A stretch of 52,936 nucleotides of DNA from an uncultured bacterium (lineage in GTDB: Bacteria; Acidobacteriota; Aminicenantia; Aminicenantales; Aminicenantaceae): positions 1 through 52,936 of the forward strand of contig CBFDBC010000001.1 of assembly GCA_965602945.1 (NCBI GenBank). Reading direction: 5' to 3'. The notes beneath the pieces are model-generated. The model had not been told where the DNA came from. It made no database searches and saw only the letters and a list, made by a program, of their open reading frames with translations. A program made the translations under genes and the position numbers. Below, one piece after another: positions 5,234 through 42,577 of this stretch. Each line of letters opens with the position of its first letter. Position 1 is the first letter of the stretch.

Positions 5234-7896
<2,663 letters not shown>

Positions 7897-7900
7897 GGTC

Positions 7901-9418: not shown

Positions 9419-9426
9419 GGTTATAT

Positions 9427-15922: not shown

Positions 15923-15926
15923 GGGA

Positions 15927-19753: not shown

Positions 19754-19757
19754 GGCC

Positions 19758-21359: not shown

Positions 21360-22828
21360 GGGCGTGATTTCTTGGGTTTGCGCGAGAAAAACGAAGGCAG
21401 CAGGTTCAGGCTCACCTTGAAGCGATGATAGACCTCATAGACCGTCTTGACCACGGGGTAGAACAGATCGTAGAGCGATTTGTCCCTGCCCACCCGGATG
21501 CGGCAGAGCAGCTTGATGATGAAGGACAGGCGGGGATACATGATCGCCCACGGGAATATGCTGCTGTAGTACGCAACCTTCTGTCTGGTGATGGAGGGCT
21601 GATCCAGTACGGTGACGTTGCTGAAAAATCCGTCGACCTTGCGGTCGCTGATCCAACCTTCTTTTTCGCACAGCTCCCCCAACCTGGTCCCGGGAAAGGG
21701 GTAGAAGGTGCTGATAAATACGATGTCCGGTTTGATGTCCCGATTCAACTGGATGGTCTTCTCCACGGTCTCGGTGGTTTCATAAGGCACACCGACCATG
21801 TTGAAGGTCCACAGCTTGATCCCGGTGTCTTTGATGATGCGGGCGGCGTCTATGATCTGCCGGTCGGAGATCCCCTTGTCCAGGATCGTGTTGCGGAGGT
21901 GCTCGTCCCCGTTCTCCACCCCCATCATCACCATGTTGCAGCCGGCATCCTTGAGGGTCTGCATGAACTCCTTTTCCACCAGGTCCGCCCGGACCGTTAT
22001 GTTGAAGGGAAAATCGTAGCGGGCCCGGTATTTCTCGAAGAATCCCGTGGTCCATTTCTTGTTGACACTGATCAGCTCATCATCGAAGACGATCGAACTG
22101 ATGTTGTCGTACCGGGTCACCAGGTCGTCGATCTCTGCCAGGATGCTCTCATGGCTGCGCACACGATAATAGCGTCCCTTGTGGCGGTATATGTCCTGAT
22201 AGGAGGAATTCACGCAGAATGTGCACTTGAAGGGACAGCCCCGGCTGCTTCGTATCTCGAGATAGCCGTGATAATTGAGCAGCTTCTGAAAATCGAGGAT
22301 CTCCCGGTCGCAGAACGGCAGGGAGTCGAGGTCCTCGCACAGGGGACGGATGGGATTCTTGATGATCCCTTCGTCGGATTTGAACCAGAAATTGTCGATC
22401 CTCAGGTCGTCGGGCCGGCGGCCGTCGTTTTTCTCCATGGCCTCGACCAGCTCCAACAGGGCAAATTCCCCTTCGCCCAGGCATATGCCGAATGCGCCCC
22501 TGATCTCGATGGATTCCTCCGGACGGACCGTGGGATGGACTCCGCCCAGGACCACCGGCAGCCCGAACTCATCGGAGATAAAGTCCGCGATATCCCGGGT
22601 GAGCTCGAGCTGTTGGGACGTCACGGAGATTCCCACCAGATCAGGCTGAAAATCGCGGATCTTGTTCCTGAGCTTCGGCTGGTCGACCCGGTACATCGTC
22701 ATCAGGTCGGTGGCGTGGCCGTGCTGTTTAAGGACCGCGGAGAGGATACCGATCCCGTAATGGTAGGTGAGCTTCTGGAGGATCAGAAGGGAAGGGTGGG
22801 GCATGGGGTGGATAAATAGAACTCTCAT
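21356..22828 (-). CDS. Cobalamin-binding-domain radical SAM protein (paralogue A)
   Basis: The track ORF extends to 22978. ATG 22828 forms an ATGA overlap with the upstream stop and gives MRVLFIHP. Motifs CLGEGEF, DLDSLPFCDREIL, cluster motif SRGCPFKCTFC and GVENGDE. Confidence 0.85.
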   Translation of the reverse strand: MRVLFIHPMPHPSLLILQKLTYHYGIGILSAVLKQHGHATDLMTMYRVDQPKLRNKIRDFQPDLVGISVTSQQLELTRDIADFISDEFGLPVVLGGVHPTVRPEESIEIRGAFGICLGEGEFALLELVEAMEKNDGRRPDDLRIDNFWFKSDEGIIKNPIRPLCEDLDSLPFCDREILDFQKLLNYHGYLEIRSSRGCPFKCTFCVNSSYQDIYRHKGRYYRVRSHESILAEIDDLVTRYDNISSIVFDDELISVNKKWTTGFFEKYRARYDFPFNITVRADLVEKEFMQTLKDAGCNMVMMGVENGDEHLRNTILDKGISDRQIIDAARIIKDTGIKLWTFNMVGVPYETTETVEKTIQLNRDIKPDIVFISTFYPFPGTRLGELCEKEGWISDRKVDGFFSNVTVLDQPSITRQKVAYYSSIFPWAIMYPRLSFIIKLLCRIRVGRDKSLYDLFYPVVKTVYEVYHRFKVSLNLLPSFFSRKPKKSRP

Positions 22829-24228
22829 CCTGATTTTCCTTTTGCGAGGCTGCCTTTCAGCACCGCCCAACCGTTCAGGACCAGTATTTTCCATTGGTTG
22901 AGCGATCGGGTGGAGGCCGCCATTTTCCAGATGTAGGAAGGCCGGAAGTAGAATTCCCTTACAGCCCGGTTCCGCCACTCCCAGGCCTGGCGGCGGGAAA
23001 ACTCGGGGGTTTCCAGGGTCGGGTAGGTATCGGAGGCATCGAACTCCAAAACATCCTCCTGGAGCCAGCCGTTTTTCAGAGCGGCCTCCCGAAGGGGAGT
23101 ACCCAGCGCGGGCACGGCAATATTGAAGGAGGCGATGTCACAATCCAGCTCCTTGGCGAAATCGATGGTCTTCCGCACCGTCTCCTCCGTTTCCCCGGGG
23201 AGCCCGATGATGAAATGCCCCAGGGTCCGGATCCCGAACTTCTGGCAGAGAGCGAATGCCCGGCGCAGCTGGTCCTTGGTCACACCCTTGGAGTACCTCT
23301 GCAGCAGCTCTTCATCCCCGTTCTCCACTCCCAGCAGGAGCGTGTGACAGCCCGCCTTTTTCATCCAGCTCAGGAGCTCTTCATCCAGGGTGTTGGCACG
23401 CGAGGAACACACCCAGCTGAGATCGAGCTTTTCCTCGACGATACGGCGGCACAGTTCGAGTGTATTCTCGCGCCGGGACTCGAAGGTGAAATCCGTGAAG
23501 AAGATCTCCTTTATCCCCAGGGACGCAATGTGCCGCAGCTCCTCCATGATGTTCTCGACGGCCCGGTACTTGAAGCCCAATACAGAGGCGGGGCAAAAGC
23601 TGCAGTTGAAGGGGCAGCCGAAATTGGTCATGGCCGTCGTGAAGGGAGACCTCCTGCCGTGCGCAAGGAGGTATTTTTTTAAGGGGAACTTCTCATGGTG
23701 GGGAACCGGGAACGCGAATTCAACCGGCCGGATGTCGTTTTTCCTGAGTAGGATATCACCCCCCCGGCGAAACGCCATGGCCGAGATCCCGTCGTACTCG
23801 CCACCCAGGAACGCCAGTATGTCCGGGCTGGTGTAGTCGAAGAGTATCGCGTCAAGGAACCCATATTCGCGCAGGAATCTTTCTGCGTCGTAGAGCAGGA
23901 CATCTCCGTTTCCTATGATCAGTCCGGGATGAGAGGTTTCTCTGATCCCGGCCATGAATGCGAAATCCTGTTTCCAGGAGGCCACTCCCGTGAGGAAAAC
24001 GATCGCGTGGTACTCCCCCTGCTCGATCCTCCGCCTGGTCTCCTCGGGTGTGAGCCCCTCCACTATGGCATCCAGGATCGTCACATCGTATCTTTGGCCG
24101 AGAATGCCGCTGAGCACCAGCAGGTCGATGGAAGGCCAGTAGTAATTCGCCTTGGAAACTCCGCTGCAGTACATATCCCGCTGATAGAGCTTGTCACCGG
24201 GGGGGTTAAGCAGCAGGATCTGTTCCAA
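22825..24228 (-). CDS. Cobalamin-binding-domain radical SAM protein (paralogue B)
   Basis: TTG start at 24228 with AAGGA upstream gives MEQILLLNPP. Motifs NFGCPFNCSFC and GVENGDEELL...GLPGETEETV. It overlaps the GT2 3' end by 23 nt. Confidence 0.85.
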   Translation of the reverse strand: MEQILLLNPPGDKLYQRDMYCSGVSKANYYWPSIDLLVLSGILGQRYDVTILDAIVEGLTPEETRRRIEQGEYHAIVFLTGVASWKQDFAFMAGIRETSHPGLIIGNGDVLLYDAERFLREYGFLDAILFDYTSPDILAFLGGEYDGISAMAFRRGGDILLRKNDIRPVEFAFPVPHHEKFPLKKYLLAHGRRSPFTTAMTNFGCPFNCSFCPASVLGFKYRAVENIMEELRHIASLGIKEIFFTDFTFESRRENTLELCRRIVEEKLDLSWVCSSRANTLDEELLSWMKKAGCHTLLLGVENGDEELLQRYSKGVTKDQLRRAFALCQKFGIRTLGHFIIGLPGETEETVRKTIDFAKELDCDIASFNIAVPALGTPLREAALKNGWLQEDVLEFDASDTYPTLETPEFSRRQAWEWRNRAVREFYFRPSYIWKMAASTRSLNQWKILVLNGWAVLKGSLAKGKSG

Positions 24229-24934
24229 CCTCTTTATCCTTCACTCTGTAAAAGAATCTGTATTTGATCAAAGCGGACAGGCACGAGAAGAAATCACTCC
24301 ACCGCACTTTTTTCCCGGTGTCTTTTCTCCGGGGTATGTATTCGACCGGCACCTCATGGATCTTGTAGCCGTGCCTGAGCAGTTTGGCTGTGATCTCGAT
24401 CGTGGAACCCCAGCGGTCGCTCTGGATGTCCAGGGCGCGGAGGACATCGGTTTTTGTCACTTGGAACATGGTCAGGACATCGGTCAGGTTGGACCTGAAA
24501 AGCCGGTCGGTGAGTTCGATCAAGATCAGGTTGGCGAAATAGGCGCCGATCCCCATCCCCTGGATGAATCCTTTTCCCAGGAACCGGGATCCGAAGACCA
24601 CCTCGGCCTCGTCTTCTATCAGGGGTTCCAGCAGTTTGGCATAGTTTGAGGGATCCAGTTCCAGATCCGCATCCTGGAATATGGTCACACGTCCCTGAGC
24701 ATGGTTCAAGGCGGTTTTTATCCCGGCGCCTCTTCCCAGGTTGGAGCCGTGGGTTATGACACGGATCTCCGGGTCCTGCTCCAGGGACTTCAAAAGCGTT
24801 GGGGTGTCATCCTCCGAACCATCATCCACGATGATGATCTCTTTGTCGATCTCTACGGCTTTGACCTTCTTGACCACCTTGATGATCGTGTTCTGTTCGT
24901 TGAACACGGGGATGATGACTGTGAGATCTTTCAT
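24206..24934 (-). CDS. GT2 glycosyltransferase, dolichyl/polyprenyl-phosphate mannose synthase (DPM1)-like
   Basis: LTVIIPVFNEQ, IIVDDGSEDDT and FQDADLELDP. ATG 24934 lies 1 nt after the upstream TAG. The track start TTG 24943 is the alternative. Confidence 0.85.
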   Translation of the reverse strand: MKDLTVIIPVFNEQNTIIKVVKKVKAVEIDKEIIIVDDGSEDDTPTLLKSLEQDPEIRVITHGSNLGRGAGIKTALNHAQGRVTIFQDADLELDPSNYAKLLEPLIEDEAEVVFGSRFLGKGFIQGMGIGAYFANLILIELTDRLFRSNLTDVLTMFQVTKTDVLRALDIQSDRWGSTIEITAKLLRHGYKIHEVPVEYIPRRKDTGKKVRWSDFFSCLSALIKYRFFYRVKDKEVGTDPAA

Positions 24935-24935
24935 T

Positions 24936-26354
24936 CTATCCAAAAAACAGGCGGAGGGCCGTCTTGGCCTTCCGGGTGAATTCCGTAAACGATTTGACCT
25001 GACGCAGCTGACTTATAACATACATGGGGCGGTAATAATAACTCAGGTGGGCCTTGCGCTGCCATTTTTCCAGCTCCCGGGGAGTAAAATTCTCGGTCCA
25101 CCACTGGGGCGTAAAATCTCCTGTCGGGTGGGCTGAAAACTCCCTCCAGAAATCTCCTTTCAGTATTCCATCTCTCATGCCTTTCTCGTAAAGCTCGGTG
25201 GCCGGGAAGGGGGTCGTGATCAGGAACTGGGCAAAATCAGGATTCAATTCCTTGGCGAAGGCGATGCTTTCCTTGATCTCCTTTTCCGTCTCACCCGGAG
25301 AACCCAACATGAAATAGGCAAAGGTGACGATGCCGGCCTTTTTCGCCATCCGGTAGGCCTGCCTCGCCTGATCCAGAGTGATACCTTTCATGAGGTTGTG
25401 CAAGATCCCGGGGTTCCCGCTTTCCACCCCGAAGCGGACCCGGTTGCACCCGGCCTGCGCCAGCCGGTCCAGGACCTCCTGATCGACCGTGTCCACCCGA
25501 GCCCGCAGGTCCATCGTGATGTTCAGGTTCTTCCGGATGATCAGATCCGCGATCGCCAGGACCCTTTTCCGGTCTATGGTGAAGGTGTCGTCGATGATGT
25601 CGAAGTCCGTGATCCCCAGTTTCACGTTCTGCTCGATCTCCCGTACCACGTTTTCCGGAGAACGCACGCGGCACATCCGGCCGTCCTTCTTGGTACAGAA
25701 CACGCAGTTGAAGGGGCAGCCCCGCGAAGTCAGGAGGCTGGTCATGTATTCCTTTCCCATGCCTAGGAGGTTGTAGTACTTCTGCCAGGGCAGGAGTTCC
25801 CTGTCGGGGAAAGGCAGGCTGTCCAGATCCTGGATAAACTCCCGGGGCGGATTGATGACGACATCCCCGTTACGGCGGAAACCAACCCCGTTGATATCTG
25901 AAAGGCTCCGGCCTCCGTCCACGGCGTCCAACAGCTCACTGAAAGTGAACTCGCCTTCGCCCATCACGATGGAATCGACCTCCGGCTGGCCGGCTATCTC
26001 TTGGGGATAGATGGTCGGATGAGTCCCCCCAAAGACGACATGACACCCGGGATTGGTTTTTTTAGCCAGGCGGGCGACCTTCAGGGCATCCAGCAAAAGA
26101 AACGTCATGCAGGAGATCCCGACCATGTCCGGCTTCTTCTGGGAGAGGACGCTTTCGAGCTTGTCATAGCCCATTTTTTCGACTTGAGTGTCGAGGACCT
26201 CGATGTTGAAGCGGTCGCCGTGAGCCTGCTGAGCGTAGGCCGCAATGTACAGCAGCCCCATGGGGGGAAAGAATCCCATCTCTTCCGTCAGCGAGTCGGG
26301 GGCAAAGGTGCGGACAAGATTCTCGGCGGGGGGGTTAATCAGGAGGATATTCAT
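24936..26354 (-). CDS. Cobalamin-binding-domain radical SAM protein (paralogue C)
   Basis: MNILLINPP, VMGEGEFTF, DLDSLPFPDRELL, SRGCPFNCVFC and GVESGNP...GSPGETEKEI. Confidence 0.88.
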   Translation of the reverse strand: MNILLINPPAENLVRTFAPDSLTEEMGFFPPMGLLYIAAYAQQAHGDRFNIEVLDTQVEKMGYDKLESVLSQKKPDMVGISCMTFLLLDALKVARLAKKTNPGCHVVFGGTHPTIYPQEIAGQPEVDSIVMGEGEFTFSELLDAVDGGRSLSDINGVGFRRNGDVVINPPREFIQDLDSLPFPDRELLPWQKYYNLLGMGKEYMTSLLTSRGCPFNCVFCTKKDGRMCRVRSPENVVREIEQNVKLGITDFDIIDDTFTIDRKRVLAIADLIIRKNLNITMDLRARVDTVDQEVLDRLAQAGCNRVRFGVESGNPGILHNLMKGITLDQARQAYRMAKKAGIVTFAYFMLGSPGETEKEIKESIAFAKELNPDFAQFLITTPFPATELYEKGMRDGILKGDFWREFSAHPTGDFTPQWWTENFTPRELEKWQRKAHLSYYYRPMYVISQLRQVKSFTEFTRKAKTALRLFFG

Positions 26355-26445
26355 GATATATCAATTCTAATTTATGCTCGCTCACTTTCGTTAAACTCGA
26401 TCCTAACCGAGGCTATAGATTAAAAAAAAGTCGAGATTTTGTCAA

Positions 26446-27516
26446 TCAGACGGAATCGTGGTCCAGCCACAGGAGATGCCAGTCCTTGAAAGGAGGGGGG
26501 GGGAGATCCGGCCGGGAAGAGTGGAATATCAGGGTGAAGACGGCCGGTGTCTTGGTAAAAAGACCTCTCCTCAGGGTGGAGAGCATGGGATCATGGGGAT
26601 TGAGCAGGCAGGCGCTCATCACGACGCCCGCCTCTAGAGACCTCTGGTGGAGCGCCTGCAGGAGGCTTTTGCCCACGTCCCGGCGATGGGGCGGGAACAG
26701 CATGTCCACGACAGCCAGCGTATCGAAGCCCTGCATGGGCATGCGGCGCGCCACCAGGTAGCCGCGCACCGAGGAGTCCTCCGAAACGGACCACTTGATG
26801 TATTCCCGACCCGGAGCACGACAGAAACGCCAGTTCAGGATTTCGGTGCTCCGTTTTGTGGTGACAGGATAATAGCTGGCGGCTTCGCCGAGGAAATCCT
26901 CGAACCTCTCATCAAAACGAGTAAACTCCTCTACATCCAGGCCGGCCTTAGAGCGAGGCCGGCTTCTGTGGAGGATCCGGCGGGCGACGGACAAAAACGG
27001 GGACAGCAGCGCAGCCAATACCCTGTTCCTGATAAAGGAACGGGCCAGGGCATGCAGATCATAGGGCCGTGCATACACCCGCAGCTCTCCCAGGCTCTGG
27101 AAACCAAAGGCGATATGCGCCTTCAGCACCTGCGGGAGATTGATCAGGCCGTAGACAAAATCGATCCCCTCCTGGGGATAATCCCTCAGTAAGGAAGTCT
27201 CCAGCCGTGGGAACAGGAGTTCCCTGCGATACTCCTCCTTCACCATGAGCTGGCAGACAAATCCCGCCTGACACTGCTTTTCATGCATTCGGAACCGGTA
27301 GGGAATGATAGCGCTGTGGCCCACGATCTCTCCGCCCGGGGCTTCACCCACCAGGACCGCGGCCTCGGATCCCGGAAATTCCTGGAACAGCCAGCGCCAG
27401 AACGCAATATAGGCCGCATCATCTGGAAACTCATCCGGCCAGATCCCGGCATGGAGCCGGGCGACTCCCAGCGCGTCCTCCTCACGGCCCCTGCGGATCT
27501 GAAACATGTGGGTCAC
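26446..27516 (-). CDS. Two-domain GNAT-fold acyltransferase candidate
   Basis: N-terminal GNAT-like IRRGREEDALGVARLH...GEIVGHSAIIP, a second alpha/beta half, and the C-terminal ending DWHLLWLDHD. GTG 27516 (GTGA overlap) or ATG 27507 is the start. Confidence 0.6.
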   Translation of the reverse strand: MTHMFQIRRGREEDALGVARLHAGIWPDEFPDDAAYIAFWRWLFQEFPGSEAAVLVGEAPGGEIVGHSAIIPYRFRMHEKQCQAGFVCQLMVKEEYRRELLFPRLETSLLRDYPQEGIDFVYGLINLPQVLKAHIAFGFQSLGELRVYARPYDLHALARSFIRNRVLAALLSPFLSVARRILHRSRPRSKAGLDVEEFTRFDERFEDFLGEAASYYPVTTKRSTEILNWRFCRAPGREYIKWSVSEDSSVRGYLVARRMPMQGFDTLAVVDMLFPPHRRDVGKSLLQALHQRSLEAGVVMSACLLNPHDPMLSTLRRGLFTKTPAVFTLIFHSSRPDLPPPPFKDWHLLWLDHDSV

Positions 27517-28361
27517 CCGGAACTCCCAATCTCCATCTGTTCTAAAACCCGCACATAATCCAGAAAGCGGATGGCGGTGAAGTTTTCGAGCAGGAGAGCG
27601 AGTTTGGGGAGCGTTGACGCCCGGTTGTGGAAGACCAGCCAGTTGAAAAGGATGTTTTCCTCTACCCTGAATCTTTCCTCTTCGGCGTCGATATCATATG
27701 GATGGAAATAGCCTACCAGGGGCCGGCGCTGTCTAGCAAACCGGCGTGAGAATCTTCTGAGCACGGGCTTCGGGAAGAAGCGCAGGTAGACCCCTCCTGC
27801 AAACGGGAGCTTGAATCCACCCAGAGATACCACGGAGATGGGCAGCTCCCAAAGTCCATTGTCCAGCCGTACCGGCGACAGGGAGAATCCCGCCCATCCG
27901 TAGAGCGGATTTTTCGCCGGCAGGACCGAACTGGAATATTGAAACCCCAACTCGACCAGGACATCCCAGGCCCAGCGGGTGGATTCGATCAAAGAAAAGT
28001 CAGGGGCCCGGAAGCCGGCGACGGAACCGACACCCTGCCTGTCGAGGGCTTCGATATTCCTCTCGAGGTTCTCCCGGAATCCCGCCGGCGTCAGCTTGTC
28101 CAGCGGCGTATGGTCATGCGTGTGGCAGCCGATCTCGTGTCCGGCCTCATGGGCCTCCCGGACAAGGCCGCCGATATGCTCGACCGTTTTCCCCTCCACA
28201 AAAAACGTACACTTTATTTTGTGGTCATCGAAGAAGCGAAGGAAGCGGTCGACCATGGCGGGCACCCGGAAATCCATGCCCTCGCCCGCCGGGGTCTGGC
28301 TGCGAATGTCCTCGAGATCGACGCTGAGCAGATAATAGGGAGGGGACAGGGAATCCGTCAT
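27513..28361 (-). CDS. Polysaccharide deacetylase (CE4) with DUF3473-type C-terminal region
   Basis: LSVDLEDI, FFVEGKTVE, the metal motif CHTHDHTPL, and YFHPYDID in the C-terminal half. Confidence 0.8.
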   Translation of the reverse strand: MTDSLSPPYYLLSVDLEDIRSQTPAGEGMDFRVPAMVDRFLRFFDDHKIKCTFFVEGKTVEHIGGLVREAHEAGHEIGCHTHDHTPLDKLTPAGFRENLERNIEALDRQGVGSVAGFRAPDFSLIESTRWAWDVLVELGFQYSSSVLPAKNPLYGWAGFSLSPVRLDNGLWELPISVVSLGGFKLPFAGGVYLRFFPKPVLRRFSRRFARQRRPLVGYFHPYDIDAEEERFRVEENILFNWLVFHNRASTLPKLALLLENFTAIRFLDYVRVLEQMEIGSSG

Positions 28362-29710
28362 TTTTTTTCGAGATTCCGCACCTTCTTGAATCTCTCGCTG
28401 TACAGCTTATCTCCGAATATTTCGATCTTCCGGGGGATCTTGAAATTTTCCAGTTTCTGCGCGCAATGCCGGCGCATGTGCAGAGAGAACTGCTTCTGAT
28501 CTTCGGGCTGGAACAGGCGTACGCGGGCACAGACGATGTTGCCGGTTATGTAGTTCTTCTCACCGTACACCGTCACCTCCGCCACATTCTCCATCTCCTG
28601 GATCACACTTTCCACTTCGGAGGGATAGACCTTCTCCCCGCCCACGTTGATGATCTCCGATTGCCTGCCCAGGATCTTTATGTAGTCGCCGTCCGTCAGG
28701 ACGGAGTCGCCGGTGTCGAACCACCCATCGTCCGTGAATGGGCTGTCCGCATTCAGATATCCCAGCATGGCGGATTCGGCCTTGATCTGGAGGATCCCAT
28801 CCTTCACCCGCGTCTGGAACTCATCGCCCCCCACCTTGACCCACAGGGACTCCGAGCTTTTGGATTTCGAGCGCAGAATACCCAGCTCGGACAGCCCATA
28901 GGTCTGGAGCAGCCGGATATGGGGGAAGAGGGCATGAAACCTCTTCAAGGTGCTTTCGGTCATGGGCTCCGTGCCGTAGGTCACGGTCTTGAGGGAGCTG
29001 AGGTCATGGCGGGCATAGGCCTCGCTCAGGAGAATGAGGTTGATGAAGGTGGGAGAAGTGGGGAGCAGTTCCACCTTGAATCGATCCACGGCCTCCAGGA
29101 CCCCGTCGGGGCTGCGATCCTGCACGGTGACGATACAGCCCGCGTTGGACAGGGTGTAGAACATGGTGTTCACCCCCCCGATGTGATCATAGAGCAGGAA
29201 CGTGATCGTCCGCAGCGAGTTCCGGGGCACCTCGAATTTCTTCAGCATCGGGACCAGGTCATGGACAGCGGCCTTGCTCTTCCCCGTTGATCCGGAGGAG
29301 AAAAGCACCAGGCCGGGGTGGTCCAACCTTCGCAGCTCCCGGTAATGGGGATGTTCGGCTTCAAAGGACAACGGGACGATCCGGACTTCATCGTTTTCGG
29401 CGACGGCGAAGCCGACCTCACTCTGGGCGGTTTCGATGAACTCTTCCCTTTTTGCGGCCGCCGCGCTCGTGAGGGGGACCAGGACGCAGCTGTGATCGAT
29501 CAGACACAGGAACAGGGCCACGGAATTCGGCGAAAAATCTGCCTCCAGAACGGCCACCGCACCCCGGGGGACATTTTGGTCACGGATGGTTTCGCGCCAT
29601 TCTCCCACCCTCCGGATCAGCCAATCGTATGAGTAGGCTTCGTCCCGCCAGACGATGGCGTCTTTATCCCGGTTTTCTGCAAACTTCTCCAGTAAAAAAT
29701 CGATCCACAT
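28358..29710 (-). CDS. Adenylate-forming acyl/aminoacyl ligase (AMP-dependent synthetase family)
   Basis: LFSSGSTGKSKA, TYGLSELG, GWFDTGD, GGEKVYPSEVE and a C-terminal KIPRK. ATG 29710 overlaps the SDR stop by 1 nt (TGATG). Confidence 0.85.
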   Translation of the reverse strand: MWIDFLLEKFAENRDKDAIVWRDEAYSYDWLIRRVGEWRETIRDQNVPRGAVAVLEADFSPNSVALFLCLIDHSCVLVPLTSAAAAKREEFIETAQSEVGFAVAENDEVRIVPLSFEAEHPHYRELRRLDHPGLVLFSSGSTGKSKAAVHDLVPMLKKFEVPRNSLRTITFLLYDHIGGVNTMFYTLSNAGCIVTVQDRSPDGVLEAVDRFKVELLPTSPTFINLILLSEAYARHDLSSLKTVTYGTEPMTESTLKRFHALFPHIRLLQTYGLSELGILRSKSKSSESLWVKVGGDEFQTRVKDGILQIKAESAMLGYLNADSPFTDDGWFDTGDSVLTDGDYIKILGRQSEIINVGGEKVYPSEVESVIQEMENVAEVTVYGEKNYITGNIVCARVRLFQPEDQKQFSLHMRRHCAQKLENFKIPRKIEIFGDKLYSERFKKVRNLEKK

Positions 29711-30411
29711 CAAATGCCCCCCAGATAGAGGATCTGTCCGGTGACAAAATCACTCTCGGGGCGGAGGAAAAAATCGATCACGTTGGAGATGTCAGAGAAC
29801 TCGCCATAACGTTGGATCGCCTGCCGTCGGATGAGGTTGTCCAGCTTTTCCGCGGGCACAGAACGTACCAGATCCGTCTTCACGGGCGTGGGGCCGATGG
29901 CGTTGACGGTGATGTTGAATGCGGCCAGCTCCCGTGCGAGTATCCGGGTCAAGGTCGCCACAGCCGATTTCGAAGCGGCATAGGCGGCCTCCCCCTCCAG
30001 ATCCAAAGCGGCCGCCACGGTCGTGAAATTGACGATACGGCCGGATTTTTTCCGGCGCATCAGCTTGGCGGCTTCCCGGCAGAACAGGAAGGTGCCCAGG
30101 GTGTTGGTCTCGAAAATCCTCTTGACGGTCGCGAGTGGTGTCAGGAGCACATGGTTCATGGACGCGATCCCGGCATTGTTGATCAGGACATCGAGCCGGC
30201 CGTAGGATCTGCCGATCTCGGCAAACATGGCCTTCACTTCCGGTTCATCGATGACGTCCAGGCAGAAATGCCTGTAGTTTTGATGCTGGAACTCGCTCTG
30301 ATGCCGGCTGCAGCCCACGACACGGCTGCCCTGGCCCGTGTAATATTCAACCAGGAACCTCCCGATCCCCCGGCTGGCCCCGGTGATCAGGATGACCCGG
30401 TCATTATCCAT
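29710..30411 (-). CDS. Classical short-chain dehydrogenase/reductase (3-oxoacyl-ACP reductase-like)
   Basis: ATG 30411 gives MDNDRVILITGASRGIGR, with NNAG and YAASKSA. The track ORF's N-terminal extension to 30501 overlaps the ACP gene. Confidence 0.85.
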   Translation of the reverse strand: MDNDRVILITGASRGIGRFLVEYYTGQGSRVVGCSRHQSEFQHQNYRHFCLDVIDEPEVKAMFAEIGRSYGRLDVLINNAGIASMNHVLLTPLATVKRIFETNTLGTFLFCREAAKLMRRKKSGRIVNFTTVAAALDLEGEAAYAASKSAVATLTRILARELAAFNITVNAIGPTPVKTDLVRSVPAEKLDNLIRRQAIQRYGEFSDISNVIDFFLRPESDFVTGQILYLGGI

Positions 30412-30712
30412 GCCCGACCTCATCGAGGAGGATACCGATGTAGTCGGCCAGGGAGCCGACCGTTCGGAAGGGGCTCGTCTTCTGAGACATGGCTTTCTCA
30501 TCCGCCAGGGTCACGGCTACGTCGAGCTCTTCCGTGATCTTCTGCTCGGCGGCCAGGATCAGATCCACCAATCCCAGGGAATCCAGCCGGCCGGAGGGAC
30601 CGAACAGGACAGACTCAGCCGATTTTTCGAGCCGCTCCTCCGGCGGGTGCTGGAGGTTGAACTCATCGATGGCTTCATAAATCAAGCGTATGATGCTTTC
30701 CCGGTTGCTCAT
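30404..30712 (-). CDS. Acyl/peptidyl carrier protein
   Basis: 102 aa with the phosphopantetheine attachment motif GRLDSLGLVDL. It is the first gene of the minus-strand operon. Confidence 0.8.
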   Translation of the reverse strand: MSNRESIIRLIYEAIDEFNLQHPPEERLEKSAESVLFGPSGRLDSLGLVDLILAAEQKITEELDVAVTLADEKAMSQKTSPFRTVGSLADYIGILLDEVGHG

Positions 30713-30916
30713 CTGGTTGTCTCTATTGGAGTTGGATTAGAATATCTGTTCATTCACCATGGGTGATTCTACTAATGAAATACGTTAAACAAAATCCTCT
30801 GCCGTGTCAAGGCGGCCGGCCCGCTCACCTCCGGACGGCTTCCTCTCCAGCTTACCCGACTGATCTAACCTAATCAGGATTTGGAAATGCTAACGGCCAA
30901 CTTCCCGGCGGTCACA

Positions 30917-30946
30917 TTGACAGGCGGAGAGGGATAATTGTATAAA
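30917..30946 (+). promoter_or_regulatory. Sigma70-like promoter candidate (TTGACA-N18-TATAAA)
   Basis: TTGACA at 30917-30922 and TATAAA at 30941-30946, in the 242-bp divergent intergenic region. The predicted start site would leave an almost leaderless mRNA for the ATG at 30955, which conflicts with the AAGGAGG at 30945-30951. Confidence 0.25.
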
Positions 30947-30954
30947 GGAGGGCG

Positions 30955-33093
30955 ATGAAGAGGCCGCGGATCTCCCTGCTTTTTCTTGTCCTGCTCTTTT
31001 CCGCCCTCTTCCTCATGCGCTTCGTCCACCTCGCCGCAGACCCCCCGCCCGACCTCAGCTCCAGCATGGGATATATGAGCGATCCGGGCGGCTACAACAT
31101 CAACGCCCGCAACAGGATCGTCTTCGGCTCCTGGGAAATGGACATGTGGAACAACATGCACATCAGCCCGCTTCCCCACTATCTCAGCTACCTGATCTTC
31201 CTGATCCTGGGGACGGGGGTCGCCCAGATGAACCTCGTGCCCGTGATCTTCGGCTGTTTAACGCTGGTGATCGTCTTCCTGGTGTTCAGGAGAAATCACT
31301 CCGCATCCCTTGCCCTGCTGGGGGTGTTCCTGCTCGGGACGAACTACCAGTTCACGATGTTCAGCCGCATCGCGGTGAGGGTCATGCCGCTTCTTTTCTT
31401 CACCATGCTGGCCGTGTATTTCCTGGAGTTCAGGCGCCGGCCGGCCCTGGGTTCCTTCCTGGCGGGCGCGAGCTGTGTTGTCGCCTTCTCGGTGAAGGCC
31501 ACCTTTGCCCAGGTCCTGCCGTCCGTCCTGGCCGGGCTTTTCTTCTACACCCTTTTCAGAGAGCGGCCCTCCTTCAAAAGGGCCATGGCCCGGGTGGCCT
31601 GGTTCGCCCTGGGAGCGGCCTTGCTCTGTTCTGTCTGGCTGTTGGCCTTCTATCTTCCCCACACGGATATCATCAATGCCTACGGCGGGGAAAACATCGA
31701 TTGGCTTACGCCTCCTCAAAACCTCACTCAGATGCTCAATAACTTCTGGAACCGGCCCCTTTTCTTCTACAACCACATGCCGGTCATGACCTCCCTGGCC
31801 AGTCTCTACCTGCTGGTCCTGGCATTCCGGGCCTTTTCCCGGCCCCAGCGGGTGACCCTGCTGAACTGGATCTGCGGCTTCTGGGTGATCACGAACATGC
31901 TCTACTACTCCATGATCTACTATCATGCCGCCCGGCATTTTGTCGTTCTGATCCTCCCCCTGGTCGTGCTGGCCGTAAATTTCCTCCACGAACTGATGAT
32001 GCTCAGAGACGCGTCCGTGCCGGATAGGATCCCGGCGCTTTTTTATCCCTTTCTTTTCATCTGGCTCCTTTTCCCCCTCAGTCACCTGGTCATCGTCCGG
32101 GGCCGGCCCACCGAACCGGCCGCAATGGAGGCCCGCTTCCTCGTCCTCCTCTTGATATCGGCAGCAGTCTGCCTGGCGCTGGGTGCGGCCCACCGTTTCG
32201 GGCTGAGGAGAAGGAGGGTATCCCTGCCTCGCCCGCTGACGGTATCCTTCATCACCCTGATGCTGGTCCTGAGCACAGCCACCAACGTTCGCCCTTACCT
32301 CCGCTGGGCCTCCACCGCCCGCACCGACATCAGGGACATCTCCCGCGACCTGGGCAAGGACTCCCCCAGGATGAGCCTGGCGGGTCTGATGTCGCTCATC
32401 CTTTCCCTGGAAAATAAAATCGAGGCCCATCCCTACTGGCCGGATTACATCAATCCCTACCCGGATTTCATGGAGCGGTTCCGCATATCCCACATATTCG
32501 TGACGCTCCATGCCGGAGAACTCGAGAAGATCGAGTATCAGCGGGATTTCCCGCAAGTCATGCGGAAGGCACGGTTGATGGCCCGGTTCCCCCTGGCGGA
32601 GACCTTCGCGGAACTCTATGCCGTCGCTCCCTCCGCCCAGCAGGGATCCGAAGGAGGGCCGGAGGAGTATGAAGGGGAGACATTCTTCGGGCGAAACGGG
32701 ATCCCCCGCTTCGATCCCGAGGCATCGCAGAGATGGGCCTATGTCGCGGAAAAAGCTCAGGAAGGTTTCCTCCTCGAACTGCCGGGGGTTACACAGTCCC
32801 GGGGCAGCTTTGAGGCCGTGATCCGTCTCAAGATGGAGGACCCTCCTTCCGACAACGGCCGTGCATTGAGGATAGACTTCGCCGATCCACGCAGCCGCAG
32901 GGTAATGGGAACAAGGAACCTGAATGTCCAGGATCTCCGGCCCGCCGGGCAATACCTGGAATTCGCCTTCACCTTCACCGTTCCCAGAAACGGTGAGTAT
33001 GCCATCCGGCTCCACTCGACCGGGAAAACAACCCTGTGGATCGACAAGGTAAGCGTGCGGCGCCTCGCTGCTTCCCCCCTACCGGCCGATTGA
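30955..33093 (+). CDS. GT-C-like (ArnT/PMT-type) polytopic membrane protein with C-terminal beta-rich domain
   Basis: An N-terminal helix is followed by a loop (DPPPDLSSSMGYMSDPGGY), then about 12 helices and a soluble domain of about 230 aa ending ...GEYAIRLHSTGKTTLWIDKVSVRRL (jelly-roll/CBM-like). Confidence 0.6.
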   Translation: MKRPRISLLFLVLLFSALFLMRFVHLAADPPPDLSSSMGYMSDPGGYNINARNRIVFGSWEMDMWNNMHISPLPHYLSYLIFLILGTGVAQMNLVPVIFGCLTLVIVFLVFRRNHSASLALLGVFLLGTNYQFTMFSRIAVRVMPLLFFTMLAVYFLEFRRRPALGSFLAGASCVVAFSVKATFAQVLPSVLAGLFFYTLFRERPSFKRAMARVAWFALGAALLCSVWLLAFYLPHTDIINAYGGENIDWLTPPQNLTQMLNNFWNRPLFFYNHMPVMTSLASLYLLVLAFRAFSRPQRVTLLNWICGFWVITNMLYYSMIYYHAARHFVVLILPLVVLAVNFLHELMMLRDASVPDRIPALFYPFLFIWLLFPLSHLVIVRGRPTEPAAMEARFLVLLLISAAVCLALGAAHRFGLRRRRVSLPRPLTVSFITLMLVLSTATNVRPYLRWASTARTDIRDISRDLGKDSPRMSLAGLMSLILSLENKIEAHPYWPDYINPYPDFMERFRISHIFVTLHAGELEKIEYQRDFPQVMRKARLMARFPLAETFAELYAVAPSAQQGSEGGPEEYEGETFFGRNGIPRFDPEASQRWAYVAEKAQEGFLLELPGVTQSRGSFEAVIRLKMEDPPSDNGRALRIDFADPRSRRVMGTRNLNVQDLRPAGQYLEFAFTFTVPRNGEYAIRLHSTGKTTLWIDKVSVRRLAASPLPAD

Positions 33094-33171
33094 CTTAATC
33101 CGGGGGAGCGGATATGATAGCCAGTCATTTTGCCAGTCAAACGAAACATGCCATGACTGCTCGACGATGAT

Positions 33172-34404
33172 ATGAAAAAAATCAACCTTCCCACAAAAAT
33201 ATTCATCGGGCTGGTCCTCGGGATCATCGGCGGCCTGGTCTTCGGTGAGAAGATCCTCATCATCCAGCCTGTCGGCGATGTGTTTCTTCGGATGATCACG
33301 ATGATCGTCGTGCCCCTGGTGTTCGTCTCCCTGACGCTGGGAACCGCCAGCCTGGGTGATGTGCGGAAGCTAGGGCGGATCGGCGCCAAGACCTCACTGT
33401 ATTTCGTCGCCACGACCGTCATCGCCATCATTATCGGGCTGGGCCTGGCCAACACTCTGAACCCGGGGAAAGGGCTGAACGAAGACGTAACGAGAGAGCT
33501 GTACAAGAGCTACGAAGCAAAGGCGCAGGACGGGATCATGAGGATGGAGGAGAAGCCCTCCCTCATCAACATCCTGGTGAACATCGTCCCCAGGAATCCG
33601 GTGGCCGCATTCGTCGAAGGCAACATGCTCCAGATCATTTTCATGGCGCTGCTGTTCGGTGTCGTCATCACCATGATCAAACGGGAAAGGTCGGAGCTGC
33701 TCATAAGCATCCTGGAAGGGCTGAACGACGTTTTCATCCAGGTCGTGCACATCGTCATGAAGCTTGCTCCCTACGGGGTCATGGCCTTGAGCGCAGCTGT
33801 GATCGGCCAGTACGGTGTGGACATCCTCGTTACTCTACTGAAATATTCGCTGGTCGTGATCGGAGGCCTCATCCTCTACACCCTGTCCTTCAACAGCCTG
33901 GCGGTAGGACTGCTCGGGAAGATGAATCCGCTTCACTTCTTCAAGGCGGTCCGTGAAGCCGTCATCATCGCTTTCAGCACCTCAAGTTCCATGGCGACGC
34001 TCCCGGTGGCCATGGAAAGCGTGGAACACATCGGTGTGTCCCGGCAGTATTCGAGTTTTGTCCTCCCGCTGGGAGCCACAGTAAATATGGACGGAACAGC
34101 CCTATATCAAGGTGTGTCCGCCGTCTTCATCGCTCAGATCTATGGGATCCCTCTCGGCTTGACCGGCCAGATCACGATCGTTCTGATGGCCGTCCTTTCC
34201 TCGATCGGAGCCGCCGGGGTTCCCATGGCCGGCATCATCGCCCTGGCCATGGTCCTCAGCCAGCTGGGCATTCCCCTGGAGGGGCTGGCCCTGATCCTGG
34301 GCGTGGAAAGGCTCCTGGACATGGTCCGCACCTGCACCAACGTCATCGGCAACATGGCCGCCTCCGTTGTTATCCAGGAGCTGGAGGAAAAGCACAACAG
34401 ATGA
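33172..34404 (+). CDS. Dicarboxylate/amino acid:cation symporter (DAACS / SLC1 family, GltP-like)
   Basis: FSTSSSMATLP and NMDGTALYQGV are present, with the typical 8-TM plus hairpin layout. Confidence 0.9.
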   Translation: MKKINLPTKIFIGLVLGIIGGLVFGEKILIIQPVGDVFLRMITMIVVPLVFVSLTLGTASLGDVRKLGRIGAKTSLYFVATTVIAIIIGLGLANTLNPGKGLNEDVTRELYKSYEAKAQDGIMRMEEKPSLINILVNIVPRNPVAAFVEGNMLQIIFMALLFGVVITMIKRERSELLISILEGLNDVFIQVVHIVMKLAPYGVMALSAAVIGQYGVDILVTLLKYSLVVIGGLILYTLSFNSLAVGLLGKMNPLHFFKAVREAVIIAFSTSSSMATLPVAMESVEHIGVSRQYSSFVLPLGATVNMDGTALYQGVSAVFIAQIYGIPLGLTGQITIVLMAVLSSIGAAGVPMAGIIALAMVLSQLGIPLEGLALILGVERLLDMVRTCTNVIGNMAASVVIQELEEKHNR

Positions 34405-35378
34405 AGACCGGGCGGTACTGGCTGCGTCTGCTGCGGCTCTTCCATCATTACCGCAGGAAATCCACCCGCCTCCCTTATCTCCCCATCCGACTGTGGATCG
34501 AACTGACCAGTCACTGCAACTTCCGCTGCGTCATGTGCCCCAACCAGGACCTGAACAAGGAAGACCGCGGTACCATGGAGATGTCCCTGTACCGGAAGAT
34601 CATCGACGAGGCCCGCGCCTTCGCCTTCGATATCAACCTGGCCCACCGGGGGGAGTCGCTGCTCCACCCCCACCTGATCGAGGCCATCCGGTACGCCAAA
34701 TCCCAGGGGCTCTACACCCGCCTCCATACCAATGGCTCCCTGCTGACGGAGGACCTGTCGCGGGAGATCATCGCCAGCGGCCTGGACCGTTTATCCTTTT
34801 CATTCGACGGCTTCACTAAAGAAGCCTATGAGGGAATACGCCGGGGAGGGGATTTCGATAAAACCATCGGGAACATCATCCGGCTTCTCCAGGTCAAACA
34901 GGACCTTAAGGCTCAGAAACCTGAGGTGGCGGTGGAGGTGATAAATTTCAAAGACATGCCCCCCGCCGAGCTGTCTCGGGCCAAGGAAGCTTTCCTCTCG
35001 CGCTTCAAGGGCCTCCCTCTCGACAGTTTCTTCACCAAGGAACTCCACAACTGGGCAGGGGAAGTCCCTCAAAAGGAGCGCACCGAAGCGTATTCCCTGT
35101 GCCCCTTCCCCTGGAACGCCCTGGTCATTTTCTGGGATGGGGGAGTGCTTCCCTGCACGCAGGATTTCTTCGGATACAACAGGATCGGCGATGTGCGCAC
35201 GGAGTCTATCCAGGCCGTCTGGAACAGTGACGCCATGATGGAGCTGCGCAGAAAACTCGGTACCAGGGCCATCGCTGATCTTAAAGCCTGCTCCCAATGT
35301 GACAGGGTCTGGAGGAAGGGGTTTTTTGGCGTGCCCAAGGAATATCTCTGGAAGTTTATTTCAAAAAAAATGCCCTAG
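34401..35378 (+). CDS. Radical SAM protein with C-terminal SPASM/twitch-like Cys region
   Basis: TSHCNFRCVMCPN (CxxxCxxC), then C-terminal cysteines in CPFPWNALVIFWDGGVLPCTQD and CSQCD. ATGA overlap with the symporter stop at 34401-34404. Confidence 0.8.
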   Translation: MKTGRYWLRLLRLFHHYRRKSTRLPYLPIRLWIELTSHCNFRCVMCPNQDLNKEDRGTMEMSLYRKIIDEARAFAFDINLAHRGESLLHPHLIEAIRYAKSQGLYTRLHTNGSLLTEDLSREIIASGLDRLSFSFDGFTKEAYEGIRRGGDFDKTIGNIIRLLQVKQDLKAQKPEVAVEVINFKDMPPAELSRAKEAFLSRFKGLPLDSFFTKELHNWAGEVPQKERTEAYSLCPFPWNALVIFWDGGVLPCTQDFFGYNRIGDVRTESIQAVWNSDAMMELRRKLGTRAIADLKACSQCDRVWRKGFFGVPKEYLWKFISKKMP

Positions 35379-42575: not shown

Positions 42576-42577
42576 AC

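Follow-up and report, generated by a model that had tools for sequence, protein, structure and literature searches.

What is the function of a run of five genes that joins a carrier protein and an adenylating enzyme to a sugar deacetylase and an acyltransferase? We addressed this question for an uncultured member of the Aminicenantaceae (Acidobacteriota), in a stretch of 52,936 nucleotides (GenBank assembly GCA_965602945.1, contig CBFDBC010000001.1, positions 1 to 52,936; hereafter, the window). The five genes are packed head-to-tail on the minus strand of the window and encode an acyl carrier protein (ACP)-like protein, a short-chain dehydrogenase/reductase (SDR), an adenylating ligase, a deacetylase of carbohydrate esterase family 4 (CE4) with a DUF3473 domain, and an acyltransferase with two GNAT domains in tandem. 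We propose, with moderate confidence, that they would act as a cytoplasmic acyl-donor and acyl-transfer unit for an envelope glycoconjugate, acylating a sugar amine that the CE4 enzyme has freed.

The carrier gene (30404-30712) encodes 102 aa with a predicted phosphopantetheine site at Ser45 in the motif LDSLG, and belongs to an unmodelled ACP/DltC-like family. The classical, FabG-like SDR (29710-30411) is 233 aa long when read from an internal ATG; the mechanical open reading frame (ORF) reaches 30501. The short ligase of the ANL superfamily (28358-29713, 451 aa from a TTG) carries the AMP-binding and AMP-binding_C domains, the CE4 deacetylase (27513-28361, 282 aa) carries Polysacc_deac_1 followed by a C-terminal DUF3473, and the tandem GNAT (26446-27516, 356 aa) is a member of an uncurated family. 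Read at the nucleotide level, the ACP-SDR junction ATGGATAA is an 8-nt overlap, the SDR-ligase junction TTGATG is an overlap of 4 nt if the ligase starts at the TTG or of 1 nt if it starts at the ATG, and the ligase-CE4 (ATGA) and CE4-GNAT (GTGA) junctions are overlaps of 4 nt each. The ATG at 29710, which is the start used by homologues, is the likely start of the ligase. A hydropathy scan detected neither a transmembrane (TM) segment nor a signal peptide in any of the five proteins, all of which are soluble.

This anatomy agrees with an earlier annotation made from the letters alone (hereafter, the original prediction), which had described five overlapping minus-strand genes with overlaps of 1 to 8 nt and a gap of 91 bp before the next gene. 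All five ORFs and the gap were recovered, the gap being a spacer at 26355-26445 ahead of a B12-binding radical S-adenosylmethionine (SAM) gene (24936-26354). The motifs that it had named were also present in the translations: LDSLGLVDL in the ACP; TGASRGIG, NNAG, and YAASK in the SDR; SSGSTGKSKA, YGLSE, GWFDTGD, and GGEKV in the ligase; and HTHDH and YFHPYD in the CE4 enzyme. Its "tandem radical SAM genes" downstream are indeed radical SAM genes, but they are not in tandem, as a gene for a family 2 glycosyltransferase (GT2; 24206-24943) interrupts them.

The linkage of the five genes was assessed via relatives of the tandem GNAT. An exhaustive hidden Markov model search yielded at least 222 family representatives at E <= 1e-30, mostly of full length (350-370 aa); a word-indexed search had suggested 22. 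Tandem-GNAT relatives lay on nine independent contigs. The closest, in an Aminicenantes metagenome-assembled genome (MAG; L006), had all five genes in the same order, with identities of 83% (GNAT), 90% (ACP), 92% (SDR), 93% (ligase), and 83% (CE4). A second Aminicenantes MAG (L001, the same as L002 and L009; GNAT 54%) had the five genes followed by genes for a B12-binding radical SAM protein, a GT2, a radical SAM protein, and another B12-binding radical SAM protein, and a metagenome contig (L005; GNAT 50%) had the five genes followed by the first three of these. Thus, the original proposal that the ligase and ACP are linked with the deacetylase and GNAT was borne out on independent contigs, and the outcome that it had named as adverse, ordinary fatty-acid genes lacking any conserved linkage, was not what we found.

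More distant loci, with GNAT identities of ~37-41%, had a different gene content. A Nitrospirota MAG (L003) encoded a carrier (99-102 aa), an FkbH-like protein, and the GNAT; a metagenome contig (L004) was similar, with a MaoC/SDR fusion ahead of the GNAT; two further metagenome contigs (L013 and L014) had the carrier, the FkbH-like protein, and the GNAT; and a Planctomycetota MAG (L007) had the FkbH-like protein and the GNAT on a contig that ends upstream. In all five, the ligase and SDR were absent, and a protein of 511-563 aa with a weak FkbH_N signal was present instead. Its HAD-IIIC core, tested in L004, matched PDB entry 3slr (E = 1e-46). FkbH enzymes take a glyceryl unit from a glycolytic intermediate and attach it to an ACP. 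Overall, the GNAT lay downstream of a carrier and a loader in eight of the eight assessable loci, the loader being the ligase with the SDR in four loci and the FkbH-like HAD-IIIC protein in five. To judge by these gene orders, the constant core is the carrier plus the tandem GNAT, and the loaders are interchangeable. A CE4/DUF3473 gene was detected within ~3 kb of the GNAT in seven of the eight assessable loci, which makes deacetylation followed by re-acylation, as originally suggested, the best reading for tandem-GNAT loci. A B12-binding radical SAM gene followed the GNAT in five loci. The radical SAM protein that follows the GNAT in FkbH-type loci was considered as an orthologue of any radical SAM protein in the window and rejected (24-30% identity), so this association holds at the level of the class only.

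Two side observations concern the same loci. In L014, a second CE4/DUF3473 gene, paired with a FemAB-like Acetyltransf_6 gene (516-2294), lies ~4 kb upstream of the FkbH-type cassette, a pairing that the original prediction had ascribed to exosortase loci. Large proteins of the Sulfatase/Phosphodiest families, of LtaS/EptA-like size, are encoded beside the cassette in L001 (3942-6605), L002 (1733-3898), and L003 (4647-6695), where they occupy the position held by a PMT_2 gene in the window and in L005.

The smallest of the five proteins is, by family alignment and structural model, a member of an unmodelled carrier-protein family with a conserved serine at the start of helix II. The family comprised 93 clusters, about one-third of which were labelled "acyl carrier protein" or DltC by their sources; the RefSeq label of the member in Bacillus thuringiensis kurstaki HD-1 is "hypothetical protein". 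In an alignment of 33 family sequences, S45 was invariant and D44 at least 90% conserved. The small ORFs of five tandem-GNAT loci, as little as 38% identical, all kept S45 too. The AlphaFold model (pLDDT 82.5) has three long helices, and the helix of residues 45-63 begins at S45, which corresponds to the N-terminus of helix II. Searched singly against the PDB, the carrier sequence matched 2lki at E = 0.38 only. With the family profile, all 20 matches were carrier proteins, including 2lki (E = 5.7e-4), several D-alanyl carrier proteins (E ~0.01; DltC at ~0.009), and ACPs, and the serine of LDS(L/M)G lined up in the three profile-PDB alignments shown. The dedicated carrier with a modifiable serine claimed in the original prediction therefore stands, its own counter-case having been an alignment in which that serine is missing. 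The family also has a signature of its own, an invariant S-P-F-R-T-V at residues 80-85 directly before the last helix, and the canonical helix III is apparently replaced in the model by a loop (residues 64-84) of lower pLDDT.

The ligase belongs to the ANL superfamily, matching the Pfam models AMP-binding (99.5 bits) and AMP-binding_C (40.9 bits), and its motifs A3, A5, A7, and A8 and the A10 lysine (K443/K444) were invariant in eight family members. It scored under every NCBIfam cut-off. Membership in TIGR03098, one of the exosortase-associated models to which the original prediction had pointed, was not supported (73.6 bits against a cut-off of 592.35, with C-terminal residues 334-432 only). 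The best matches were acyl/aryl-CoA ligases, and there was no DltA structure among the 60 PDB matches listed. In the family-profile alignment, His177 aligned with His207 of 4-chlorobenzoate-CoA ligase, the A4 position of acyl- and aryl-acid enzymes. This is the position of the aspartate that binds the alpha-amino group in the adenylation domains of non-ribosomal peptide synthetases (NRPS). A pairwise alignment had placed the invariant Asp176 opposite His207, as if the ligase activated an amino acid; since the profile alignment places His177 there, that idea was dropped, and we have a weak preference for a putative substrate other than an amino acid.

The ligase family is large, with at least 7,989 clusters at E <= 1e-60. 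Identities in the top 120 clusters were 64-98%, and lengths were 440-501 aa (mostly 446-452). Those few for which an organism was named came from several phyla, and the only public annotation was "long-chain fatty acid--CoA ligase". Beyond the window, the ligase adjoined a carrier protein in 13 neighbourhoods, that is, in every one examined (Aminicenantes, Desulfobulbus, Bacillus, Bradyrhizobium, and Burkholderia). Because the family adjoins carriers across such different settings, there is a strong circumstantial case that the physiological acceptor would be the carrier protein rather than coenzyme A (CoA), and the originally proposed pairing of the ligase with a dedicated carrier holds up. 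Among Bacillus megaplasmids, 36 records carried a family member as well. In the one examined, pBMB431 of B. thuringiensis kurstaki HD-1 (L019; NZ_CP004877.1, 11645-13353), a family carrier lies directly upstream of a 48%-identical ligase, without an SDR between them, and this pair offers a tractable experimental system. A 362-aa protein encoded beside it was considered as a tandem-GNAT member and is not in that family.

The SDR matched adh_short (159 bits) and adh_short_C2 (162 bits) and carries the classical motifs TGxxxGxG, NNAG, and YxxxK. Its best NCBIfam match was FabG at 161 bits, below the equivalog cut-off (296-298), and it is thus not a FabG equivalog. It is predicted to tailor the carrier-bound acyl group by keto/hydroxy interconversion. 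The FabG-like SDR, the FkbH (glyceryl) alternative, and the CmlS-like neighbours of one related locus (L011, see below) point loosely to a short C3-C4 keto or hydroxy acid, which we offer as a conjecture. A GltP/DctA-like sodium:dicarboxylate symporter gene (33172-34404, plus strand) lies beside the PMT_2 gene and overlaps the start of a SPASM radical SAM gene by 4 nt; the symporter could import the acid substrate, and it was absent from the related loci examined.

The deacetylase scored well above the Pfam cut-offs for PF01522 Polysacc_deac_1 (65.5 bits, cut-off 23.1) and PF11959 DUF3473 (96.7 bits, cut-off 29.6). Its motifs were kept across loci: the aspartate in VDLED (residues 14-18), H80/H84, R-A-P at 118-120, and His220 of YFHPYD. 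TIGR03006, suggested in the original prediction, was its best match and covered nearly the full length, with a score (178.2 bits) below the cut-off of 276.2. We predict a cytoplasmic enzyme that frees a sugar amine by de-N-acylation.

Pfam detected only Acetyltransf_9 in the GNAT (42.3 bits, cut-off 25), confined to residues 6-123. The AlphaFold model (pLDDT 91, pTM 0.88) has two GNAT halves, so the two-domain description given originally was accurate. In Foldseek, N-myristoyltransferases ranked on top (E ~1e-16, TM ~0.6), followed by the Eis-like structure 3n7z, and the structural matches spanned ~330-385 alignment columns, close to the full length. The suggested TIGR03019 match did not materialize, as there were zero NCBIfam matches at E <= 0.001; ten distant family members matched no NCBIfam model either. 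The usual cofactor loop in the N-terminal half is without glycines (YRRELLFPRLE). The protein is predicted to move the carrier-bound acyl group onto the sugar amine. All 19 aligned family sequences end at one column with a conserved W-H-L-x-W-x-D-H-D-x-V tail, which was modelled at a pLDDT below 50. N-myristoyltransferase uses its own C-terminal carboxylate as the catalytic base.

A search starting from the carrier and ligase families revealed that the ACP-SDR-ligase trio recurs, in the same order and with the same sizes, in unrelated contexts. Identities to the window proteins were 48-74% for the ligase, 54-71% for the SDR (seven other loci), and 46-68% for the ACP, which points to one acyl-carrier product, or close variants of it, at all of these loci. 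The trio was found beside Wzz and Poly_export genes in a Desulfobulbus MAG (L010); in a Wzx-type exopolysaccharide locus with FemAB-like and hexapeptide acyltransferases (L012); directly upstream of a PglD-like N-acetyltransferase (L015); in a dTDP-deoxysugar/ABC-transporter locus with a hexapeptide transferase (L016); and upstream of a small PseH-like GNAT in a nonulosonic-acid cluster with two NeuB proteins, two CMP-transferases, a DegT aminotransferase, and a PseB-like dehydratase (L018). In L011 (8255-16415), two ORFs for CmlS-like FAD-halogenases lie directly upstream of the trio and a C-A-T-TE NRPS directly downstream, the acyl-carrier module having apparently been recruited into a halogenated natural-product pathway. 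A truncated gene after the Desulfobulbus trio was considered as a tandem-GNAT member and is not in the family. A nucleotide search of Escherichia coli genomes gave no match to the trio.

From the observed gene anatomy, folds, intact catalytic motifs, and conserved but modular linkage, we infer a sequence of chemical steps along with the nature of the acid, the acceptor sugar, and the final target. First, the ligase would adenylate a small carboxylic acid and thioesterify it to the phosphopantetheine on Ser45 of the carrier, a step suggested by its motifs and by its universal adjacency to a carrier. Second, the FabG-like SDR would interconvert keto and hydroxy groups on the tethered acyl chain. 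Third, the CE4/DUF3473 enzyme would strip an N-acetyl or similar group from an N-acetylhexosamine-type sugar, most likely one already placed on polyprenyl phosphate by the co-operonic GT2, which resembles DPMS and ArnC. Fourth, the tandem GNAT would hand the acyl group from the carrier to the freed amine. Fifth, the B12-binding radical SAM enzymes may modify the N-acyl amino sugar further, and a glycosyltransferase of the GT-C fold (PMT_2 family) would pass it on to an acceptor in the periplasm.

Several observations weigh against this reading. The carrier had zero matches in Pfam and NCBIfam even at E = 10, the PP-binding model included; the Foldseek matches of its model (the specialised ACP RPA2022, other ACPs, and a peptidyl carrier protein) were weak, with E values from 0.29; and no phosphopantetheinyl transferase was seen in the window. 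The C-terminal half of the GNAT has an R-x-x-G-x-S loop with an invariant G282, which is compatible with an acyl-CoA donor, so it is adjacency that designates the ACP as the donor. The alignment of His177 is a weak guide to the acid. The CE4 proteins are only ~30% identical across the loader swap, and none was seen in the 13.6 kb of L003. Full five-gene synteny has so far been found only in Aminicenantes-like contigs, where shared ancestry inflates its weight. In L015, L016, and L018, the trio occurs without any CE4 gene, and the amine there must come from an aminotransferase. Lastly, promoter and terminator scans gave background levels only and do not define an operon.

The absence of CE4 from these three loci leads to the alternative that survives best, one we regard as possible but clearly less probable than the reading above. 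It retains the donor chemistry, and the acyl group would go to an amine that the PseC/ArnB-like aminotransferase has installed, such as the 4-amino group in a 4-amino-4,6-dideoxy-hexose or in an Ara4N-like sugar. The CE4 enzyme would then act separately, like ArnD: the sugar on polyprenyl phosphate would bear an N-acyl or N-acetyl group for a time, and the enzyme would strip it off ahead of the GT-C step. The PglD-like, hexapeptide, and PseH-like N-acyltransferases of L015, L016, and L018, which belong to amino-sugar pathways, fit this view. So do the DegT gene beside the dehydratase/epimerase gene in the window, with the pair recurring in L005 and DegT in L004, and the combination of an ArnC-like GT2, a CE4 enzyme, and a PMT_2 GT-C, which mirrors ArnC/ArnD/ArnT. 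What tips the balance towards the CE4-freed amine is proximity: near the GNAT, CE4 is present in seven of the eight assessable loci against three of eight for DegT, and the CE4 gene is translationally coupled to the ligase and GNAT genes, whereas DegT lies ~12-15 kb away on the other strand.

It is unlikely, in our view, that the GNAT uses acyl-CoA or acetyl-CoA while the carrier, ligase, and SDR serve another step, such as a tethered substrate for the B12-binding radical SAM enzymes or a moiety of a lipid or secondary metabolite. Its C-terminal loop is of the kind that binds the CoA pyrophosphate, its best structural matches (N-myristoyltransferase and Eis) are CoA-dependent, and the radical SAM gene after the GNAT in five loci would suit such a role. 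However, the adjacency of carrier and GNAT survives both the exchange of the loader and the replacement of the radical SAM protein by a non-orthologous one (24-30%), and elsewhere the trio pairs with acyltransferases where radical SAM genes are absent.

Marginally less probable still is a product other than a glycan, be it an N-acyl amino acid, an aminolipid, or a starter unit of a secondary metabolite. GNAT-fold N-acyl amino acid synthases that use acyl-ACP exist, ligase-family members with other ACP and SDR types precede type I polyketide synthase (PKS) genes on Bradyrhizobium and Burkholderia plasmids, and the true trio stands beside an NRPS and the CmlS-like halogenases in L011. The window and every tandem-GNAT locus, on the other hand, are dominated by glycan genes (GT2, GT4, GT-C, CE4, DegT, sugar epimerase, and Wzm/Wzt), and PKS or NRPS genes occur in none of them. 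As for ordinary fatty-acid genes (an acyl-CoA synthetase, FabG, and AcpP) lying by chance beside glycan genes, the public annotation of the ligase and the FabG match of the SDR would suggest them, but this explanation is very improbable and effectively refuted by a strict, translationally coupled linkage across phyla, all scores being far under equivalog cut-offs, the ligase being ~50-100 aa shorter than FadD-type models with partial matches only, and the carrier lacking a PP-binding match and not being AcpP-like.

Extending the proposal of an acyl-donor and acyl-transfer unit beyond the Aminicenantes, we tentatively suggest that the trio, with a ligase that occurs in thousands of genomes, is a widespread and wrongly annotated module and the general source of non-acetyl N-acyl groups (e.g., 3-hydroxybutanoyl-like) on bacterial amino sugars, serving acyltransferases of at least four folds. 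In Aminicenantes, it would have been joined by the CE4 enzyme, the tandem GNAT, and the B12-binding radical SAM proteins to make a novel polyprenyl-phosphate-linked N-hydroxyacyl amino sugar, which the PMT_2 GT-C would transfer to a surface acceptor, possibly PKD-domain proteins.

The closest precedent for this logic is the Nod factor pathway, in which NodB de-N-acetylates the sugar and NodA N-acylates it from an ACP (PMC5080398). In the Nod pathway, a CE4 enzyme removes one N-acetyl group, the amine is acylated from a dedicated carrier (NodF), and a GT2 (NodC) builds the substrate, and the same is proposed here for the corresponding proteins of the cassette. The differences are considerable: NodA has its own fold, whereas the transferase of the cassette has a GNAT fold; NodA transfers a long fatty acid that a ketosynthase (NodE) has helped to build, whereas an adenylating ligase would load the acid here; and the Nod substrate is a chito-oligosaccharide, whereas that of the cassette is probably a lipid-linked monosaccharide. 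Scores were far below the Nod equivalog cut-offs (NodB 30.2 bits against 240, NodC 24 against 550), and there was no NodA-like match.

The ArnC/ArnD/ArnT pathway resembles the locus in combining a DPMS/ArnC-type GT2, a cytoplasmic de-N-acylase, and a GT-C, with an ArnB/PseC-like aminotransferase nearby. The logic in common is that an N-acyl amino sugar is made on a lipid carrier, loses its N-acyl group, and is then transferred in the periplasm. Equivalog cut-offs were not reached (ArnC 51 bits against 529, ArnB 388.9 against 631). The Arn pathway has no carrier, ligase, SDR, GNAT, or radical SAM protein and ends with a free amine, whereas re-acylation is predicted here. PpgS, FlmF2/NaxD/FlmK, and LgmABC represent analogous routes to polyprenyl-phosphate-aminosugar donors. 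In the hopanoid route, a GT2 (HpnI), a deacetylase (HpnK), and a B12-radical SAM enzyme (HpnJ) act in turn on lipid-linked GlcNAc; HpnK is not a CE4 enzyme, and no hopanoid cyclase was seen in the window.

For the unusual acyl group itself, the O-antigen of Vibrio cholerae O1 (Wbe/Rfb K-O) provides a comparison, and the original prediction had named an ACP and an AMP-ligase-like protein among its tetronate genes. The tetronate on perosamine depends on WbeL, a protein of 471 aa with a putative domain for ATP binding, in a description that makes no mention of an ACP (PMC3441752). The likeness lies in the dependence of an unusual N-linked hydroxyacyl group, borne by an O-antigen amino sugar, on an AMP-ligase-like protein, and the difference in the acceptor amine, which comes from an aminotransferase with no deacetylase involved. 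The tetronate partners in V. cholerae O1 are an alcohol dehydrogenase and LuxC/E-like enzymes, unlike those of the cassette.

DltA/DltC (D-alanylation) and AlmE/AlmF/AlmG (lipid A glycylation) likewise use an adenylating enzyme and a small dedicated carrier to decorate an envelope polymer, and DltC structures ranked high when the PDB was searched with the carrier-family profile. The ligase of the cassette differs in being of the acyl/aryl-acid type, and a GNAT is predicted to carry out the transfer in the cytoplasm, with an amine as the acceptor. The neighbours scanned had no MBOAT (DltB) or DltD domain, and no AlmG-like partner was seen. FkbH/FkbJ-type glyceryl-ACP serves the methoxymalonyl-ACP and tetronate pathways. 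The five distant loci resemble these systems in having an FkbH-like loader beside the same carrier family; the window has no FkbH-like gene, and the product would go to a sugar amine rather than a polyketide extender. N-myristoyltransferase and Eis share with the tandem GNAT the pseudo-dimer of two GNAT halves and the N-acylation of an amine, and differ in sequence (10-15% identity) and in their acyl-CoA donors and protein or aminoglycoside acceptors, with no family model in common beyond Acetyltransf_9 in the N-terminal half.

Exosortase loci were the remaining comparison, as the original prediction had noted the similarity of the cassette to their gene sets while finding neither exosortase nor PEP-CTERM protein. 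We also found no such Pfam domain among the window ORFs scanned (most ORFs of at least 180 aa). The CE4 enzyme shares the Polysacc_deac_1 plus DUF3473 architecture of the exosortase A set, of which its best match, TIGR03006, is a part, but TIGR03098, TIGR03006, and TIGR03019 were all under cut-off or without a match. Together with the lack of exosortase and PEP-CTERM domains, these failed models indicate that the cassette is not the exosortase-associated set.

Taken singly, the enzyme types are already known, as is the logic of deacetylation and re-acylation. In the open-access literature, we found no description of the five-gene cassette; the family of carriers, that of the tandem GNATs with their exchange of loaders, and a general acyl-donor role of the trio for sugar N-acyltransferases likewise appear undescribed there. 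Antigenicity and recognition by phages and the immune system are shaped by the unusual N-acyl groups that bacterial surface sugars carry; most of these groups are assumed to derive from acyl-CoA or have no established acyl donor. If the trio is a dedicated acyl-carrier route, it could serve as a genomic marker for non-acetyl N-acyl decorations in many phyla, nonulosonic-acid clusters included. The labels "long-chain fatty acid--CoA ligase" and "hypothetical protein", a very frequent mis-annotation, would also be corrected, and two families that are without current models, the carrier protein and the tandem GNAT, would be defined. The interchangeable loaders (ligase with SDR, or FkbH-like) on a constant carrier/GNAT core are a clear case of a pathway evolving by modules beyond the synthesis of polyketides and non-ribosomal peptides. 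Drawn from uncultured organisms, the inference offers a handle for annotation and prediction rather than a surprising mechanism, and it settles no long-standing question.

The genes around the cassette are consistent with a glycan locus. The first gene after the cassette (24936-26354, minus strand) encodes a B12-binding radical SAM protein of 472 aa with B12-binding and Radical_SAM domains; its best NCBIfam models were HpnJ (212 bits) and BchE, both under cut-off, and it was 73-80% identical to its counterparts in L001 and L005 and 28-29% identical to the radical SAM proteins of L013 and L014. The GT2 that follows (24206-24943, minus strand) is a small soluble protein of 245 aa and, by its NCBIfam and PDB matches, of the polyprenyl-phosphate sugar synthase type. 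Its NCBIfam list was headed by AglJ and PpgS, with dolichyl-phosphate hexose transferase and ArnC lower down, its top PDB matches were DPMS (5mlz), ArnC (9bhc/8vxh), and GtrB (5ekp), and it is syntenic in L001 and L005 (76-83% identity). Next on the minus strand come an HpnJ/AprD4-like radical SAM gene (22825-24228; orthologues of 75-76% identity in L001 and 68% in L005), a B12-binding radical SAM gene (21356-22825; 75-76% in L001), and, as the last of the run, a gene for a polytopic, GT-C-like membrane protein (19758-21359; 533 aa, ~11 TM-like segments in the hydropathy scan) with a weak match to a GT-C arabinofuranosyltransferase model (E = 9e-4).

Divergent from the cassette, on the plus strand at 30955-33093, lies the gene for the PMT_2-family GT-C glycosyltransferase (712 aa, ~10 TM-like segments, PMT_2 31 bits), a candidate periplasmic transferase for the lipid-linked sugar. 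A 45%-identical orthologue holds the same divergent position in L005, and L003 has a PMT_2 gene beside the GNAT. The protein, which may be of an ArnT-like or a PMT-like subfamily, had no sequence match in the PDB. In all, three polytopic GT-C-like proteins flank the cassette. Just beyond the operon, a membrane protein of 588 aa (17987-19753, plus strand) has nine TM-like segments and matched no family apart from a weak AftA_C hint.

Further along the plus strand, an NAD-dependent sugar epimerase/dehydratase gene (41583-42575) is followed by the gene for the PseC/ArnB-like DegT aminotransferase (42572-43726), which scored 395 bits for PseC (cut-off 423.5) in addition to the ArnB score given above. 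The pair is also found near the cassette in L005 (69-74% identity). The wider region contains genes for a WcaF-like hexapeptide acetyltransferase, a GDSL protein, dehydratases/epimerases, GT2 and GT4 enzymes, and Wzm/Wzt. Within 20 kb, there are four B12-type radical SAM genes (21356-26354; 40169-41575) and the SPASM radical SAM gene (34401-35378, plus strand). HpnJ was the best NCBIfam model for the three operon radical SAM proteins and the third-best for that at 40169-41575, with 139-212 bits against a cut-off of 578. One of the B12-type proteins also resembles AprD4 and PhpK, its scores being far under the cut-offs, and an HpnA-like sugar epimerase gene (15753-16901, plus strand) scored 165 bits, under cut-off.

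Large PKD-domain (and BNR) proteins flank the cassette in the window, at 43810-46323 (plus strand) and 46372-48714 (minus strand), and likewise its syntenic relatives in L001 (16357-18612 and 20882 onward) and L005 (68-2428 and 13406-16183). As PKD proteins together with a DPMS-like GT2 and a PMT_2 GT-C resemble the logic of protein O-mannosylation, these surface proteins could be the targets of glycosylation.

The spacer between the cassette and the radical SAM/GT2 block contained neither a terminator-like hairpin nor an Rfam match, and an Rfam scan of 19500-33500 found nothing; L001 and L005 likewise have a non-overlapping spacer at this point, of 136 and 366 bp, respectively. Upstream, at 2398-4521 and 5504-10531, the minus strand encodes the Wzm/Wzt pair of an ABC transporter, which includes a Wzt_C domain, and subunits of ATP synthase. 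The glycan region (~13.4-46 kb) adjoins housekeeping genes and has a G+C content of 0.54-0.64, overlapping that of its flanks, which suggests chromosomal DNA that was not recently acquired.

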